4,224 bases of DNA, taken from a virus (taxonomy: Duplodnaviria > Heunggongvirae > Uroviricota > Caudoviricetes). The DNA is taken from the IMG/VR virus record IMGVR_UViG_2654587570_000007; one strand, given 5' to 3'. Every line of letters begins with the position of its first letter. Within the stretch, counting starts at the first letter, position 1. Of this stretch, positions 136 to 4,224 are shown in pieces. Under the pieces are notes generated by a model, which was given only the letters and a program-made list of their open reading frames with translations, made no database searches and had not been told where the DNA came from. Made by a program: the position numbers and the translations under genes.

Positions 136-1059
136 GTGGCACTTGAAATTGGCGGGCATCCGTCGTTGTTGTTGCCACATGTGGCGATTAGTCTTGACCG
201 TACTGAAGGTGCCACGCTGGAGTTCTACGAAGCTGAGGCGAAAAAACAGGCGAAGCAGTTTTTCATGGATATTGTTGCCGGGTTATGCGAAGGGGATGAA
301 CCGTCACCGGAAAAGCGCCCCGTAATTTTAGATGCGCAGGATGTATTGATAACCTACAAAGGAAAGCTACCGGGAAGAATTACTTGTTCTCTGAAGATGC
401 CGCCGTCAACACTGCGGTCAGAAAAAGATGATGTTGAATCGCGTATTGAAAAACTGGAGTGCTATATCGCTGAATTGAAAAAAAGCACCCCAACAAAAAA
501 TGAGGTGCTTGCAGCAGACGAAATGAAAGAAGCTATTCCTGATCGCGCGGCGAATCTAAGCTGCGCTTCATGGTTGAAAGAGCATCTTCAGCAGCCTGAA
601 AAAAAACGCCGCGATGAGCAGTTTGCTGCGTTTTACGATTATTGCCGGAAAGTGATGAGCAGAAATCTCGCAGAGTGTTTCAGTATTCATAATGATAATT
701 TCAGTGACCTGGAATGGGAGTGTAACCGGCCATCCTTTGTTGTATCCGGTGATGCTGGGAAAATAACCATCTCAGAAAATGGAAAAGTAACACCGCCATC
801 GCACCAGCATAGTGAGGAGCTCATTGAATTTGCCATTGATTACCTGAAGAACAATAAAAAGCAGGGGCTGATGAAGTGCATTGGTCGTTGCATGGGATAT
901 CTGCAGATAGCTGCTGAGATTGAAGCGCTGGCCAGTGGTGCGGACAAGGATGCAGTTGTGCGGGAGGCTCTTCTTCGTGATTTTGATAATCCGCCCTTTA
1001 AAAAAGTGCCGGCTTACTGGTTTCATCCAGGACTGACTTATCTTAAAGGACGTATATAA
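136..1059 (+). CDS. Hypothetical 307-aa soluble protein of unknown function, immediately upstream of the endolysin; start codon uncertain
   Basis: A 924-nt uninterrupted ORF, with the six-frame track placing the start at GTG 136. No transmembrane segment; charged and Cys-containing. No Shine-Dalgarno was found before GTG 136, GTG 181, ATG 265 or ATG 397. I do not recognise a family from memory. Confidence 0.6.
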   Translation: MALEIGGHPSLLLPHVAISLDRTEGATLEFYEAEAKKQAKQFFMDIVAGLCEGDEPSPEKRPVILDAQDVLITYKGKLPGRITCSLKMPPSTLRSEKDDVESRIEKLECYIAELKKSTPTKNEVLAADEMKEAIPDRAANLSCASWLKEHLQQPEKKRRDEQFAAFYDYCRKVMSRNLAECFSIHNDNFSDLEWECNRPSFVVSGDAGKITISENGKVTPPSHQHSEELIEFAIDYLKNNKKQGLMKCIGRCMGYLQIAAEIEALASGADKDAVVREALLRDFDNPPFKKVPAYWFHPGLTYLKGRI

Positions 1060-1101: not shown

Positions 1102-1635
1102 ATGAACACCAAAATCAAATACGGCCTGTCGGCTGCCGTTCTGGCGCTGATTGCCGCTGGTGCGCCTGCGCCTGACATTCTCGACCAGTTTCTGGATGAA
1201 AAGGAAGGTAACCACACCACGGCATACCGTGATGGTGCGGGGATCTGGACCATCTGCCGTGGTGCCATCATGGTGGATGGTAAACCTGTTGTTCCAGGCA
1301 TGAAGTTGTCGAAGGCAAAATGCGCTCAGGTTAACGCCATTGAGCGTAATAAGGCGCTGGCATGGGTGGAGAAAAACATCAAAGTGCCATTGACCGAACC
1401 ACAGAAAGCGGGGATTGCGTCATTCTGTCCGTACAACATTGGCCCCGGTAAGTGTTTCCCGTCGACGTTTTATAAACGAATTAATGCAGGCGATCGCAGG
1501 GGGGCGTGTGAGGCGATTCGCTGGTGGATTAAGGACGGTGGCAGAGACTGCCGTATTCGCTCAAACAACTGTTACGGTCAGGTATCCCGTCGCGACCAGG
1601 AGAGTGCGCTGGCGTGCTGGGGAATTGACAGATAA
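1102..1635 (+). CDS. R: SAR-type endolysin (phage lysozyme, T4-lysozyme/GH24 fold, P21 R / Stx-phage R-like)
   Basis: 177 aa. N-terminal weakly hydrophobic Gly/Ala-rich segment YGLSAAVLALIAAGAPAP is typical of a signal-arrest-release domain. Motif EGNHTTAYRDGAGIWTICRG gives the Glu35/Asp44/Thr50 spacing recalled for the P21 R catalytic triad. Near-identical by memory to the R protein of Stx phages. Confidence 0.93.
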   Translation: MNTKIKYGLSAAVLALIAAGAPAPDILDQFLDEKEGNHTTAYRDGAGIWTICRGAIMVDGKPVVPGMKLSKAKCAQVNAIERNKALAWVEKNIKVPLTEPQKAGIASFCPYNIGPGKCFPSTFYKRINAGDRRGACEAIRWWIKDGGRDCRIRSNNCYGQVSRRDQESALACWGIDR

Positions 1636-1725: not shown

Positions 1726-1764
1726 AAAACCCCGTTTGTTGGCTGCAAGCGGGGTTTTGTGTTT
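1726..1764 (+). terminator. Intrinsic (rho-independent) terminator-like hairpin between R and Rz, possibly bidirectional
   Basis: 13-bp stem aaaaccccgtttg / caagcggggtttt (one G-U pair), 7-nt loop ttggctg, GC-rich core, followed by T-tract ttttgtgttt. A-tract on the 5' side gives a U-tract on the opposite strand too. Confidence 0.6.
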
Positions 1765-1794
1765 CCTGACTCTGGAAAAGTCAAAGGAGAAAGT

Positions 1795-1932
1795 GTGTTT
1801 GATTTTAGCAAACTGATTCGGGAGATTCGAGTGATGGCTGAAAAATTATCCACCTGGAAGTTCATTCTTATCTGGCTGGTGTTTGTGATTATGGCCTCCG
1901 GTTATTTCATCGGTCAGATACGCTGGTGGTGA
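1795..1932 (+). CDS. Small single-pass membrane protein (45 aa from GTG 1795, or 32 aa from ATG 1834) between endolysin and spanins; candidate lysis accessory
   Basis: Not in the ORF track (below 60 aa). AAGGAG at 1784-1789 lies 5 nt before GTG 1795; alternative ATG 1834 has GGAG at 1821-1824. Product MFDFSKLIREIRVMAEKLSTWKFILIWLVFVIMASGYFIGQIRWW has one hydrophobic helix (FILIWLVFVIMASGYFIG). Stop TGA 1930-1932 is one base from the Rz ATG at 1934, suggesting translational coupling. Confidence 0.45.
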   Translation: MFDFSKLIREIRVMAEKLSTWKFILIWLVFVIMASGYFIGQIRWW

Positions 1933-1933
1933 A

Positions 1934-2401
1934 ATGAACCGCGTACTGTGCGTGGTCATCATTGCCCTGCTGGTGGCCTGTGGTGCGCTTAGTCTGGGGC
2001 TGAATCATTACCGTGATAACGCCATAACCTACAAAGAGCAGCGCGATAAAAAAGTCAGTGAGCTGGAGCAGGCAAATGCAACCATTACTGATATGCAGCA
2101 GCGCCAGCGTGATGTTGCTGCACTTGATGCCAGATACTCGAGGGAATTAGCCGATGCGAGAGCTGAAAATGAAACTCTTCGCGCTGACGTTGCCGCTGGT
2201 CGTAAGCGCCTGCGGATCAACGCCACCTGTCCAGGCTCCGTGCGTGAAGCCCCCACCACCTCCGGCGTGGATAATGCAACCGGCCCCCAACTGGCAGACA
2301 CCGTTACACGGGATTATTTCACCCTCAGAGAGCGGCTGATGACGATGCACAAGCAACTGGAAGGGGCACAGGACTATATCCGCACTCAGTGCCTGAAATA
2401 A
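1934..2401 (+). CDS. Rz: i-spanin Rz (inner-membrane spanin subunit)
   Basis: 155 aa. N-terminal TMD VLCVVIIALLVACGALSLGL followed by a charged coiled-coil-like periplasmic domain. Strong similarity by memory to lambda Rz (NHYRDNAITYK, AITDMQ, RQRDVAALDA, DYFTLRERL, MxKQLEG). Confidence 0.93.
   Translation: MNRVLCVVIIALLVACGALSLGLNHYRDNAITYKEQRDKKVSELEQANATITDMQQRQRDVAALDARYSRELADARAENETLRADVAAGRKRLRINATCPGSVREAPTTSGVDNATGPQLADTVTRDYFTLRERLMTMHKQLEGAQDYIRTQCLK
2154..2339 (+). CDS. Rz1: o-spanin Rz1 (outer-membrane lipoprotein), fully embedded in the +1 frame of Rz
   Basis: 61 aa. Signal peptide with lipobox LVVSAC (Cys20), then CVKPPPPPAWIMQP and WQTPLHGIISPSE, matching lambda Rz1 by memory. 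SD-like GAGGG about 9 nt upstream of ATG 2154. Confidence 0.85.
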   Translation: MRELKMKLFALTLPLVVSACGSTPPVQAPCVKPPPPPAWIMQPAPNWQTPLHGIISPSESG

Positions 2402-2751
2402 GTTTTGTTGATGCGCCGTATCGTCGCTGTATTCCCTCATTAACAGAGACCGCAGCCCGACAGGGAGACTCCTCTGCGCGAGTGTGCGGGGATAATCAAA
2501 AACGATACACACCGGGGTTTACCGCGTTAACGGAGCGCGGCGTTGTCCCCTCATAGTCGCCTGTCCGGTGCGATGGTGGAAGAAGCCGGATGTTTATCAC
2601 TATTAATTGATGACACAGAAATGGATTCATTGAATTTCAGCACGTTTTTGTATTCGTGTTATTGAACATCTGTTTATTTTACTTTTAACATATTGATAAT
2701 AAAAAGAGCTGTAAATCTTTAGATGAGTCGATTTTGTCCGGGGAAGTTCAA

Positions 2752-2889
2752 ATGGATTTTATGCTGACGGTTTCTGGTGTGGTTATCCTGTCCATTGCTT
2801 ATACTGCAGATAAATATGGCTGCCATTTGTTATCACGTATTGGCGCTTATTGTTCGTTGATGCTGATTTTCTCGTCGCTTTTTTTTTGA
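2752..2889 (+). CDS. Possible small hydrophobic protein (45 aa) in the AT-rich island; speculative
   Basis: ATG 2752 is preceded by GGGGAAG (2740-2746) with a 5-nt spacer. Product MDFMLTVSGVVILSIAYTADKYGCHLLSRIGAYCSLMLIFSSLFF. AT-rich promoter-like sequence upstream, e.g. TTGAAC at 2662-2667 then 18 bp then TAACAT. Short, in low-complexity DNA, no homolog recalled. Confidence 0.25.
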   Translation: MDFMLTVSGVVILSIAYTADKYGCHLLSRIGAYCSLMLIFSSLFF

Positions 2890-3025
2890 GTAAGTTATAT
2901 TAATTATAACAAATAATTTTCTGTGTTATTTTTTCAGGCTATCCCGTCAGAGGGGAAGCCTGTACTGCCGGGGAGCGAATGGAAAACTGATGTGTCCGGT
3001 AACTGCGTGTTCTGTGAACACCATG

Positions 3026-3211
3026 TTACTTAATTATGTAATTCATACCCGAACTCTCTGTTGACAGCCTTCTTCTGCAGGCTTCAATAACCCACGCTGA
3101 AAAGTTTCCTGAACCTTTCAGATCAAGAGCGATGTTAATTTGTTCAATCATCTGGTTTGGAAATCGGATGTTGCGGGTTGTTGTTCTGCGGGTTCTGTTC
3201 TTTGATGACAT
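3026..3211 (-). CDS. Small ribbon-helix-helix (Arc/MetJ-like) DNA-binding protein, YlcI/YnfO-like (DUF3950 with conserved NFS motif)
   Basis: 61-aa minus-strand ORF. Pattern RNIRFPNQMIEQINIALDLKGSGNFSAWVIEACRRRL fits beta-strand plus two helices; NFS motif present. SD-like GGGGAAA upstream of the ATG on the minus strand. Family assignment is from memory. Confidence 0.65.
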   Translation of the reverse strand: MSSKNRTRRTTTRNIRFPNQMIEQINIALDLKGSGNFSAWVIEACRRRLSTESSGMNYIIK

Positions 3212-3387
3212 AATGTTTCCCCATATTCAGTGTTGCTGATTTGTATTATCTGAAGTTGCTTTTACGTTAATTTGACGCAGATCAATTAATACGATACCTG
3301 CGTCATAATTGATTATTTCTCGTGGTTTGATGGCGTACACACATGTTGTGATAAACCTTATATAGATGATAATTATTATCATTTCGT

Positions 3388-3394
3388 GGGTCCT
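3388..3394. other. cosQ-like element (gggtcct), about 24 bp upstream of the cosN nick
   Basis: Position and sequence match my recollection of the lambda right end (gggtcctttccgg, then gatccgac and ggttacg). Surrounding sequence from about 3226 onward is near-identical to the lambda right-end region as recalled. Confidence 0.5.
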
Positions 3395-3417
3395 TTCCGG
3401 CGATCCGACCGGTTACG

Positions 3418-3429
3418 GGGCGGCGACCT
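3418..3429. other. cosN: the 12-nt cohesive-end sequence gggcggcgacct; predicted nicks 3417/3418 on the top strand and 3429/3430 on the bottom strand
   Basis: ggttacg|gggcggcgacct|cgcgggttttcgctatttatgaaaattttccgg matches the lambda cos junction as I recall it, and lies just upstream of the terminase genes as in lambdoid phages. Confidence 0.85.
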
Positions 3430-3463
3430 CGCGGGTTTTCGCTATTTATGAAAATTTTCCGGG

Positions 3464-3574
3464 AACCATGTCCGGTTTCTCTGCAAGTTAACTACATAAA
3501 AAATATAAAAACAGGTTTTCCGTGAACCGGACATGCGCAAAAAATAGACATATAAACCGGACATGACCGGTTTT
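3464..3574. repeat. cosB-like region: three copies of an 11-bp repeat (inverted catgtccggtt at 3467-3477; direct aaccggacatg at 3525-3535 and 3555-3565) with an A/T-rich putative IHF-bending segment (about 3485-3515) between the first and second
   Basis: Repeats read directly from the sequence; the two direct copies are 30 bp apart. The layout of one inverted and two direct repeats around an A/T-rich segment mirrors the lambda R3-I1-R2-R1 pattern, but the repeat sequence is not the lambda one. Confidence 0.55.
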
Positions 3575-3612
3575 GTGCTGATTGTGAGGTAAGAGTTTTT
3601 GCGGGGTGAGGA

Positions 3613-4122
3613 GTGGCTACGCAGACTGAAGTTGCCAGGCATTTGAGTCTGACCGATCGCCAGCTTCGCAGATTGCAGAAATTGCCGGGTGCTCCGGTCT
3701 CGAATAAGCGAGGACAACTGGATCTGGATGCCTGGCGTGATTTTTACATATCGTATCTGAGGAGAAGTAAAAACGATGTGCCTGATGGCGATAGCGAAGA
3801 CGACTATGAAGAAAAGTTACTCATTGCCAGATGGAAGTTGATCGAAGAACAGGCAATCGCCCAGCAATTAAAAAATCAGGCGTCCGAAGGAAAGCTTATT
3901 GACACCGGATTCTGTATTTTTGCCCTCAGTAAGCTGGCAATGGCGTTATCCAGTACGCTTGATTCCATCCCTTTATCCATGCAGCGACAGTTTCCTGATT
4001 TAACACCGCGCCATCTTGACCATCTGAAAACCCTTATTGCGAAGGGGGCAAATCAGTGTGCGCGGGCAGGGGATAAATTACCGGATTTACTCGATGAATA
4101 TATCAGAGCAACAACTGAATAA
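3613..4122 (+). CDS. nu1: Terminase small subunit (Nu1-like, DNA packaging protein)
   Basis: 169 aa. C-terminal half aligns closely by memory with lambda Nu1 (GFCIFALSKLA, LDSIPLSMQRQFPDLTPRHLD, LPDLLDEYI). N-terminal winged-HTH region is diverged. GTG start at 3613 is preceded by an in-frame stop and a G-rich SD. Confidence 0.92.
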   Translation: MATQTEVARHLSLTDRQLRRLQKLPGAPVSNKRGQLDLDAWRDFYISYLRRSKNDVPDGDSEDDYEEKLLIARWKLIEEQAIAQQLKNQASEGKLIDTGFCIFALSKLAMALSSTLDSIPLSMQRQFPDLTPRHLDHLKTLIAKGANQCARAGDKLPDLLDEYIRATTE

Positions 4123-4224
4123 TATGATGGCTGCCGTTTCGGTTGCGCTGCAGCCTCTGGTCAGGGTTGTACCAATGACGGCAGTTGAATGGGCTGATCA
4201 AAATTATTATCTGCCTAAAGAATC
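4094..4224 (+). CDS. A: Terminase large subunit (gpA-like), 5' partial, running off the window
   Basis: ATG 4094 gives MNISEQQLNNMMAAVSVALQPLVRVVPMTAVEWADQNYYLPKE, matching the lambda gpA N-terminus by memory (MNIS..., TAVEWADANYYLPKES). It overlaps the Nu1 3' end by 29 nt in another frame, as in lambda. Confidence 0.9.
   Translation, partial: MNISEQQLNNMMAAVSVALQPLVRVVPMTAVEWADQNYYLPKE

Follow-up and report, generated by a model that had tools for sequence, protein, structure and literature searches.

Can a phage share the cohesive-end site of lambda and have a packaging specificity of its own? The question is raised by a stretch of 4,224 nucleotides (IMG/VR virus record IMGVR_UViG_2654587570_000007, Caudoviricetes), here called the window, which is the junction between the late region and the head genes of an E. 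coli lambdoid prophage. We have analysed its cos site, the repeats that make up cosB, and the small terminase subunit (TerS) encoded directly behind them. Our conclusion is that positions 3388-3572 are very probably a complete lambda-type cos, in which a separate packaging specificity has been placed on the same cutting chemistry. Judged by sequence, cosB and the TerS head (residues 1 to about 25-55) form a module of a widespread class, predicted to recognise sites with a TCCGG core. What is new is a specificity variant of a known lambda-type system and nothing categorically new; the analysis adds the wider class, whose TerS proteins begin with MATQ, the covariation of Arg20 with a G in the sites, and the identity of this cos with the orphan cos2 of phage-inducible chromosomal islands (PICIs). 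In what follows, bp numbers count from the left cohesive end.

The cos site and its small terminase

In a local alignment with the joined ends of lambda, positions 3102-3462 of the plus strand match lambda from -308 to +45. From cosQ through bp 45 (3388-3462), 73 of 75 bases are identical, and identity is 100% from bp -8 to +45. The homology ends exactly at bp 45/46, which puts the mosaic joint with non-lambda DNA at 3462/3463, and megablast matches to lambda, HK629, HK630 and DE3 all end at the same base, 3462. The comparison of the window with lambda, phage 21 and the N15-type Monarch gives the same limit: the four types are alike as far as about bp 45, and beyond it each has its own pair of cosB and TerS N-terminus. 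By analogy with lambda, the nicks would fall at 3417/3418 on the top strand and at 3429/3430 on the bottom strand. The heptamer GGGTCCT upstream of cosN corresponds to cosQ, which in lambda is the signal for the termination of packaging; it is kept in all members of the family, and also occurs upstream of cosN-like sites in distant MATQ-type phages. Within bp 13-45, which include the equivalent of I2, there is a match with two mismatches to the consensus of the integration host factor (IHF), at 3447-3459.

Beyond the joint, the window carries repeats of its own (Table 1). Three copies are exact, and the third of these, R1', overlaps the imperfect R1 equivalent, creating the palindrome AACCGGACATGACCGGTT, so that an inverted pair spans bp 138-155. 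When up to two mismatches were allowed, six matches were found against 1.15 expected, and none of 200 shuffles reached six; the lambda R motif CGTTTCC was not found in cosB of the window. R3 is invariant across 42 distinct variants, and among these close variants a minor allele above 10% was seen in 1 of 40 R columns, compared with 22 of 105 columns in the rest of cosB (Fisher p = 0.005). The cores of R3, R2 and R1 start at bp 53 (forward), 110 (inverted) and 148 (forward) in the window, at bp 55, 114 and 157 in lambda, and at bp 55, 112 and 155 in phage 21, the latter two having no extra inverted copy. The distance from the R3 core to the R2 core is 57 bp in the window and in phage 21 and 59 bp in lambda. 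R3 of lambda and N15 has been placed at about bp 48-63 (PMC4669245). A forward core is found at bp 145 in locus L148. In another relative, L029 (IMG/VR 2537561979_000009), R3 and R2 are intact and the R1'/R1 palindrome is cut after AACCGGACAT, with about 60 bp of unrelated sequence following before TerS.

The spacer between R3 and R2 contains an I1-like element, which lies where lambda has TAACTTAATGTTT and phage 21 has TAACTTTTTGTTT, at bp 74. No match to the IHF consensus (YAANNNNTTGATW) with two mismatches or fewer was found in this spacer, and only a positional equivalent is claimed. At the I1 position the mismatches to the consensus number three in the window, two in lambda and one in phage 21; relatives, close and distant, have 0-2 mismatches at bp 66-74, as good as I1 of lambda. 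IHF could plausibly take part in this family; whether it does so at the window copy is uncertain.

By tblastn, only residues 73-164 of TerS can be aligned to lambda Nu1, with 45.7% identity. Pfam family PF07471 (Phage_Nu1) is likewise limited to residues 49-150 (70.5 bits, cut-off 30), while among the PHROGs phrog_57 (terminase small subunit) matches the protein from end to end and phrog_7289 (E = 1.8e-42) its N-terminus. Using residues 1-62, an exhaustive HMMER search of a 50%-identity library matched 40 clusters. Most of the MATQ-type cluster proteins are 150-210 residues long and start with MATQxE(V/I)AxHLxL(S/T)(D/E)R..R.L...P...G..D.D..R..Y, and TerS of the window has all nearly invariant columns of an alignment of 23 such sequences. 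One predicted protein of 2465 residues, P0038, has 19 separate matches to the 62-residue domain, either an unusual repeat arrangement or perhaps an artefact. AlphaFold gave a predicted local distance difference test score of 87.7 for the whole TerS and 81 for the isolated N-terminal domain, which was modelled as a short strand and three helices (4-10, 15-22 and a long one, 38-55), with a wing before the third. The nearest folds in Foldseek were MerR-type winged helices, the excisionase RdfS, the phage TerS DNA-binding domains 7lw0/7lxs and the N-terminus of lambda TerS in 6hn7_B. TerS is thus likely, according to the model, to consist of a MATQ-type winged-helix domain up to about residue 55 and a Nu1-like body. 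A sequence search of the PDB with TerS gave a chance match only, the NCBIfam search gave nothing, and a word-indexed protein search with the N-terminal 80 residues returned only E. coli fragments. The overlapping gene for the large subunit (TerL) translates as MNISEQQLNN...TAVEWADQNYYLPKE, a start that we take to resemble the N-terminus of lambda gpA; the same overlapping gene is annotated in PhiR12_2.

How do these results compare with the preliminary description of the window, which had been made from the letters alone? Its identification of cosN and flanks as those of lambda, and the top-strand nick it deduced, agree with our alignment. It had counted three repeats, one of them inverted, and had set them apart from the R sites of lambda. 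The difference from lambda and the three exact copies stand, but the count overlooked the imperfect fourth copy, which by its orientation is the R1 equivalent. It had also described a Nu1 protein with a diverged N-terminus and a conserved C-terminal half. The N-terminus is indeed not recognisably lambda-like; by its sequence, however, it belongs to a distinct and widespread class of DNA-binding domains and is not a drifted lambda domain, and the C-terminal half is only moderately conserved.

Table 1. Features of the cos and terminase region and, below them, of the rest of the window
Feature	Position	Strand	Remarks
cosQ-like heptamer GGGTCCT	3388-3394	+	as in lambda, with the same spacing to cosN (about 30 bp upstream)
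cosN, 12-base cohesive-end sequence GGGCGGCGACCT	3418-3429	+	12/12 identical to lambda bp 1-12
lambda-identical bp 13-45	3430-3462	+	100% identity; includes the equivalent of lambda I2 (TATGAAAATTTTC)
R3 equivalent, putative TerS site CATGTCCGGTT	3467-3477	+	bp 50-60; exact repeat
A/T-rich spacer	3478-3524		phased A-tracts
I1-like element TAACTACATAAAA	3489-3501		bp 72-84; positional match to lambda and phage 21
R2 equivalent (AACCGGACATG on the plus strand)	3525-3535	-	bp 108-118; exact repeat, inverted relative to R3
R1', third exact copy	3555-3565	-	bp 138-148; orientation of R2
R1 equivalent CATGACCGGTT	3562-3572	+	bp 145-155; one mismatch, orientation of R3, overlaps R1'
TerS, Nu1 family	3613-4122	+	GTG start, 169 residues, directly after cosB
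TerL (gpA-like), start	4094-4224	+	overlaps the 3' end of TerS, runs off the window
DUF1327 open reading frame	136-1059		
Phage lysozyme	1102-1635		
Small membrane open reading frame	1759-1932		57 residues, single hydrophobic segment, between lysozyme and Rz
Rz	1934-2401		with embedded Rz1-like frame
Perfect IHF consensus TATCAATATGTTA	2686-2698	-	the only one in the window
Hydrophobic open reading frame	2734-2889		51 residues, inside the AT-rich stretch
DUF3950/YlcI gene	3026-3211	-	

Linkage of repeats and TerS heads

Do the repeats and the N-terminal domain of TerS belong together? Among the fetched loci with a lambda-type cosN, MATQ-type TerS was preceded by ATGTCCGG sites in 84 of 84 cases, and N15/Monarch-type N-termini were preceded by GGTTGTTGT sites in 20 of 20. 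The TerS proteins of lambda and phi80 pair with CGTTTCC and that of phage 21 with RTGTCGG. The test was also made in reverse, scanning IMG/VR with a DNA pattern alone (cosN, 37 unspecified bases, CATGTCCGGTT), which gave at least 120 loci. Among the matches listed, four sites were too near a contig end to score, and 105 of the 117 scorable sites were followed by a MATQ TerS; the other 12 are in PICIs. The R sites of N15/Monarch (GGTTGTTGTT) and their N-terminus, M-A-(V/F)-LLNKSDMA, are both absent from the window and occur together in the prophages L004, L005 and L177-L196. From residue 26 onward, TerS of these Monarch-type prophages is 71-72% identical to that of the window. The same body is found there with a different head and a different cosB, and it is for this reason that cosB and the TerS head look, at the sequence level, like an exchangeable cassette with joints at about cos bp 45 and about TerS residue 25. 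The preliminary description had proposed a distinct specificity with covarying cosB and terminase, and this proposal appears well founded in view of the linkage in both sets of loci, the capture by satellites discussed below and the core positions that have been kept.

The pairing extends to more distant relatives. Loci L172-L176 belong to the cluster of protein P0037, which is 64% identical to TerS of the window and has a nearly identical helix; L172 and L175 have ATGTCCGGTT at bp 53 and an inverted copy at bp 110, with good IHF matches in spacers that are unrelated to that of the window. The MATQ domain of Pseudomonas, Aeromonas and enteric phages almost always has TCCGG-core sites in front of it. 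Of 22 clusters, 19 have Arg19, and in 17 of these 19 we found (G/T)TCCGG(TT); where the cohesive end is recorded (the window type, L172, L175, L148 and phiARM81ld), it lies about 50-60 bp downstream of cosN. Upstream of TerS, the Pseudomonas-, Aeromonas- and Vibrio-like MATQ phages have GGGTCCT, a cosN-like GGGTAATTCGAG, an I2-like T-rich element and TTCCGGTTCCGG. In phiARM81ld, whose record begins at the cohesive end, TTCCGGTTCCGG is at bp 55-68, the position of R3. Judging from these sequences, the cos layout of lambda, including cosQ, seems to be conserved well beyond the enteric lambda-like phages. In the Pseudomonas-like MATQ phages L092-L147, GGGTCCT stands about 30 bp upstream of the conserved GGGTAATTCGAG, and the T-rich I2-like element follows. 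Two loci, L150 and L151, have the TerS helix SVRQVQRL (Gln19-Arg20), preceded by tandem GTGTCGTGTC, a 21-like core without CCGG; they are possibly another specificity variant.

Which residue could distinguish the two forms of the core? TerS N-termini were grouped at 80% identity and motifs were counted only downstream of cosN; raw counts over the whole 250 bp upstream had been confounded by TTTCCGG of the I2 and cosQ regions, hence the recount. In clusters with Arg20 (helix ..R-R-L), GTCCG was more frequent than TTCCG in four of five, with one tie and no reverse case, and in clusters with another residue TTCCG prevailed in 13 of 14, again with one tie and no reverse. Residue 20 was the sole perfect discriminator among positions 1-28, its association with GTCCG or TTCCG having a Fisher p of 4e-4, a value which ignores phylogeny. 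Locus L350 provides one more case of Arg-Asn with TTCCGG; scans with P0048 gave no further Arg-Arg lineages and those with P0057 only an Arg-Asn relative. In our alignment residue n of the window stands opposite residue n+1 of lambda, and residue 20 is the counterpart of Asn21 in lambda, whose sites have TTTCC, and of Arg21 in phage 21, whose sites have TGTCGG. The T or G before TCCGG corresponds to bp 56, the base that genetics has identified as a key discriminator between lambda and 21 (Feiss and colleagues, PMC4669245), and the published TerS determinants for these two phages are residues 20 and 24, not 21 (PMC4669245). Perhaps Arg20, in the recognition helix, contacts the G of GTCCGG, with Asn, Thr, Ser, Asp, Glu or Lys going with TTCCGG; from the covariation we consider this possible, though not quite an even bet. 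If true, one helix residue (Arg20 or Asn/Thr/Ser) sets one base (G or T), as between phage 21 and lambda, and the family offers a natural test set for a "code" between recognition helix and DNA site, Arg20 with G and the others with T.

The same cos in PICI satellites

More questions come from the 12 sites that, among the matches listed, have no terminase downstream. These are located in elements of 6-13 kb. In the sole annotated island, L266, there are genes for an integrase, an Ash-family protein, a primase (D5/P4-alpha-like), SSB and capsid proteins resembling gpE and gpD, which is the gene content reported for PICIs of the EcCICFT073 type (PMC6092414). Phage and island are homologous solely over window positions 3388-3572, from cosQ to R1', where they are about 89% identical; the PICI copies retain R1', and the forward R1 is less well preserved in them. 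In all these islands the window-type cos is faced by a second one, of which there are two kinds. In kind A (L230, L239, L272, L302 and L342), the second cos has GTGAAGGTGACACCACCACCAC and is followed by an rppA-like gene. In kind B (L231, L238, L245, L253, L266, L269 and L313), a complete Monarch/N15-type cos with three GGTTGTTGT sites lies about 535 bp away, with no rpp between the two cos sites (L266:9484-10085). The cassette of kind A is present in 53 and that of kind B in 14 of 5426 complete E. coli genomes. In the kind A island L272 (9891-10710, minus strand), cosB of cos1 and the rppA-like gene are arranged as cosB and TerS are in a phage.

Kind A is EcCICFT073. Its cos2, as published in both papers of the Penades lab, corresponds to the window-type cos, with about 89% identity to positions 3388-3572. 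Fillol-Salom et al. (2018, 2019) could not identify a phage cosB in the island and reported that cos1, not cos2, was needed by lambda and phi80. In the literature searched, we found no mention of EcCICFT073 cos2 beyond these two original papers. Could cos2 be a site for helpers of another type? From the sequence match we suggest that it would be a captured cos of the window-type specificity, allowing direct packaging by helpers with the window-type TerS. There would then be a direct route, in which cos2 or the Monarch-type cos is read by the helper's own TerS, and a second, Rpp-mediated route through cos1. The capture of 3388-3572 as a block would also independently support it as a functional packaging unit. 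Taken together, the module may be a further lambda-like specificity, the cognate of the orphan cos2 of PICIs, with two facing cos sites serving two helper specificities and residue 20 setting G or T; in this full form we offer the reading tentatively, as somewhat less than probable. It would provide a possible explanation for the second cos site of EcCICFT073, dispensable for lambda and phi80, and it suggests that PICIs gather cos sites of several specificities, which would widen their helper range.

Mechanism, alternatives and comparison with known systems

How would packaging proceed at this cos? In our model, TerS would bind R3 and R2 through its winged-helix head, at CATGTCCGGTT sites and not at CGTTTCC, and the spacer would be bent by IHF or intrinsically. 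By analogy with lambda, the C-terminal part of TerS would hold a lambda-like TerL over cosN, where TerL would nick 12 bases apart; packaging would run rightward, toward the terminase genes, and cosQ would serve termination. Such a phage would take its own DNA into particles and leave the DNA of lambda, 21 and N15-type phages unpackaged. This matters in that packaging specificity decides which DNA is carried by the particle, and hence which phages, satellites and cosmids move together.

Several points weigh against this picture. We infer, rather than observe, the binding of TerS, the nick positions, the discrimination against lambda and 21 DNA and the contact of Arg20 with G. The R core of the window is 2-3 bp nearer cosN than in lambda or 21, so the geometry may differ, and the I1-like site is poor. 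The Foldseek matches of the N-terminal domain (template modelling score 0.56-0.65) have E-values of only 0.4-1 because the domain is small, and the winged-helix fold is likely and statistically not firm. Correction for about 150 residue-position tests raises the p value for residue 20 to about 0.06; moreover, of the four Arg-Arg clusters, two are sisters. Lastly, our view is limited to 4.2 kb, and this particular prophage may not be intact. Could the prophage then be defective, and its cos a relic of the design described, never used? Cryptic lambdoid prophages are common in E. coli, damage is visible in some relatives (TerS truncated by an insertion sequence (IS) in L006 and L007, R1 replaced in L029), and the I1-like site is weaker in the window than in relatives. 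Yet cosQ, cosN, all R copies, TerS, with 94% identity to that of PhiR12, and the start of TerL are intact, and near-identical loci (98-99%) occur in many strains; we consider a relic unlikely.

The most serious rival is that the specificity is that of phage 21 in disguise, so that 21-type and window terminases would recognise each other's cosB. The R cores are nearly alike, CATGTCCGG in the window and TCATGTCGG in 21 being one inserted C apart, Arg occupies the corresponding place in the helix of the two TerS proteins, the spacing from R3 to R2 is the same, and the natural helper of EcCICFT073, phage 4, has TerS and cosB of the 21 type (PMC9026076). However, the extra C moves GG by one base pair relative to TGTC, and the R3 core is 3 bp nearer cosN. 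The DNA-binding domains of the two proteins cannot be aligned by BLAST, the residues equivalent to the 21 determinants 20 and 24 are Arg19 and Lys23 in the window compared with Glu20 and Ser24 in 21 (PMC4669245), and the wider MATQ class conserves CCGGTT, which is missing from 21 sites. Cross-recognition thus seems to us quite improbable. Even less credible is the view that the repeats are operators, translational control sites of the terminase operon or a terminator. They do sit just upstream of TerS, and a weak terminator-like hairpin was called at 3459-3475 (CCGGGAACCATGTCCGG and a T-rich tail); this hairpin overlaps R3 and has five pairs only, between R3 and CCGG in the I2-like segment, and we do not take it for a terminator. 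The distance that is conserved is that of the repeats to cosN, not to the start of TerS, PICIs retain the repeats with cosN and without TerS downstream, and the arrangement of the repeats mirrors R3-I1-R2-R1 of lambda.

This cos type appears unstudied, although roughly a fifth of complete E. coli genomes have it: in 1138 of 5426, matches cover at least 80% of the 241-bp cos region. TerS of the window is on 264 IMG/VR contigs. Both cos and TerS are also present in PhiR12_1, _2, _2_star, _4 and _5 (91% nucleotide and 94% protein identity), phages that were deposited as complete genomes and whose host is given as K-12 or E. coli C. The best match to the whole window among complete genomes is 99.4%, in the bovine strain UTAK-1; O157:H16 and O55:H7 strains match at about 98%. 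In L006 (Shigella flexneri SFBU1023) and L007 (E. coli ECMA0423), in the region of locus positions 1000-1500, an IS transposase gene ends directly against TerS at about residue 68, from which it follows that cos and the DNA-binding head have been deleted in these remnants. L284 has two window-type cos sites, at 1897 and 7359, each followed by TerS, in the same orientation and 5.4 kb apart; a concatemer of a small element was ruled out, as the flanks are not duplicates.

Upstream of cos, the window has a phage lysozyme, Rz and other genes (Table 1). RefSeq features under the best whole-window matches include a YdfR family protein. Between Rz and the DUF3950 gene there are about 620 bp of AT-rich, mostly non-coding sequence (2400-3025). 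Searching the window for Rfam families and for tRNA genes gave no match. A scan of the window for promoter-like elements gave two, compared with 2.7 expected from shuffles, and for terminator-like elements three, compared with 1.4 (standard deviation 1.1), no clear excess in either case.

Genetic work on lambda-like packaging specificity has dealt with lambda, 21 and N15, the specificity of Monarch having been inferred (Feiss et al. 2015, PMC4669245). With lambda, the window shares an essentially identical cosQ, cosN and bp 1-45, the order of R3, A/T spacer, inverted R2, R1 and a TerS overlapping TerL, and the Nu1-family body. It differs from lambda in the R sites, CATGTCCGGTT and not CGTTTCC(T/G)TTCT, in the extra inverted copy abutting R1, in an N-terminal domain that cannot be aligned, with the helix TDRQLRRLQKL where lambda has SIRTIQNWQEQ, and in a shorter linker without the lambda segment ENEKLRREVEELR. 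Phage 21 also combines a lambda-type cosQ and cosN with a different cosB and recognition helix, and has Arg at the equivalent of residue 20. Its R sites are TC(A/G)TGTCGG and its helix is DPRTIERWQSQ, whereas the window core has one extra C (CATGTCCGG compared with CATGTCGG) and its N-terminal domain falls in a different class, MATQ, the N-terminus of gp1 being lambda-like (MKVNKK...). N15 and Monarch have a similarly complex cosB behind a lambda-type cosN, and the Monarch-type body is similar from residue 26, but the Monarch-type sites are GGTTGTTGTT and the N-terminus is MAFLLNKSDMA. EcCICFT073 cos2 has the same block of cosQ, cosN, R3, spacer, R2 and R1'; unlike the window cos, it is in a satellite, has no terminase gene after it and faces the Rpp-dependent cos1, and its forward R1 is further degraded. 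In phiARM81ld of Aeromonas and LPPA33 of Pseudomonas, the MATQ domain is about 50-60% identical over residues 1-55 and a TCCGGTT core stands at the R3 position; these phages differ from the window in their simple cosB, with tandem TTCCGGTTCCGG directly before TerS, in Asn20 with a TTCCGG core, and in other cosN sequences.

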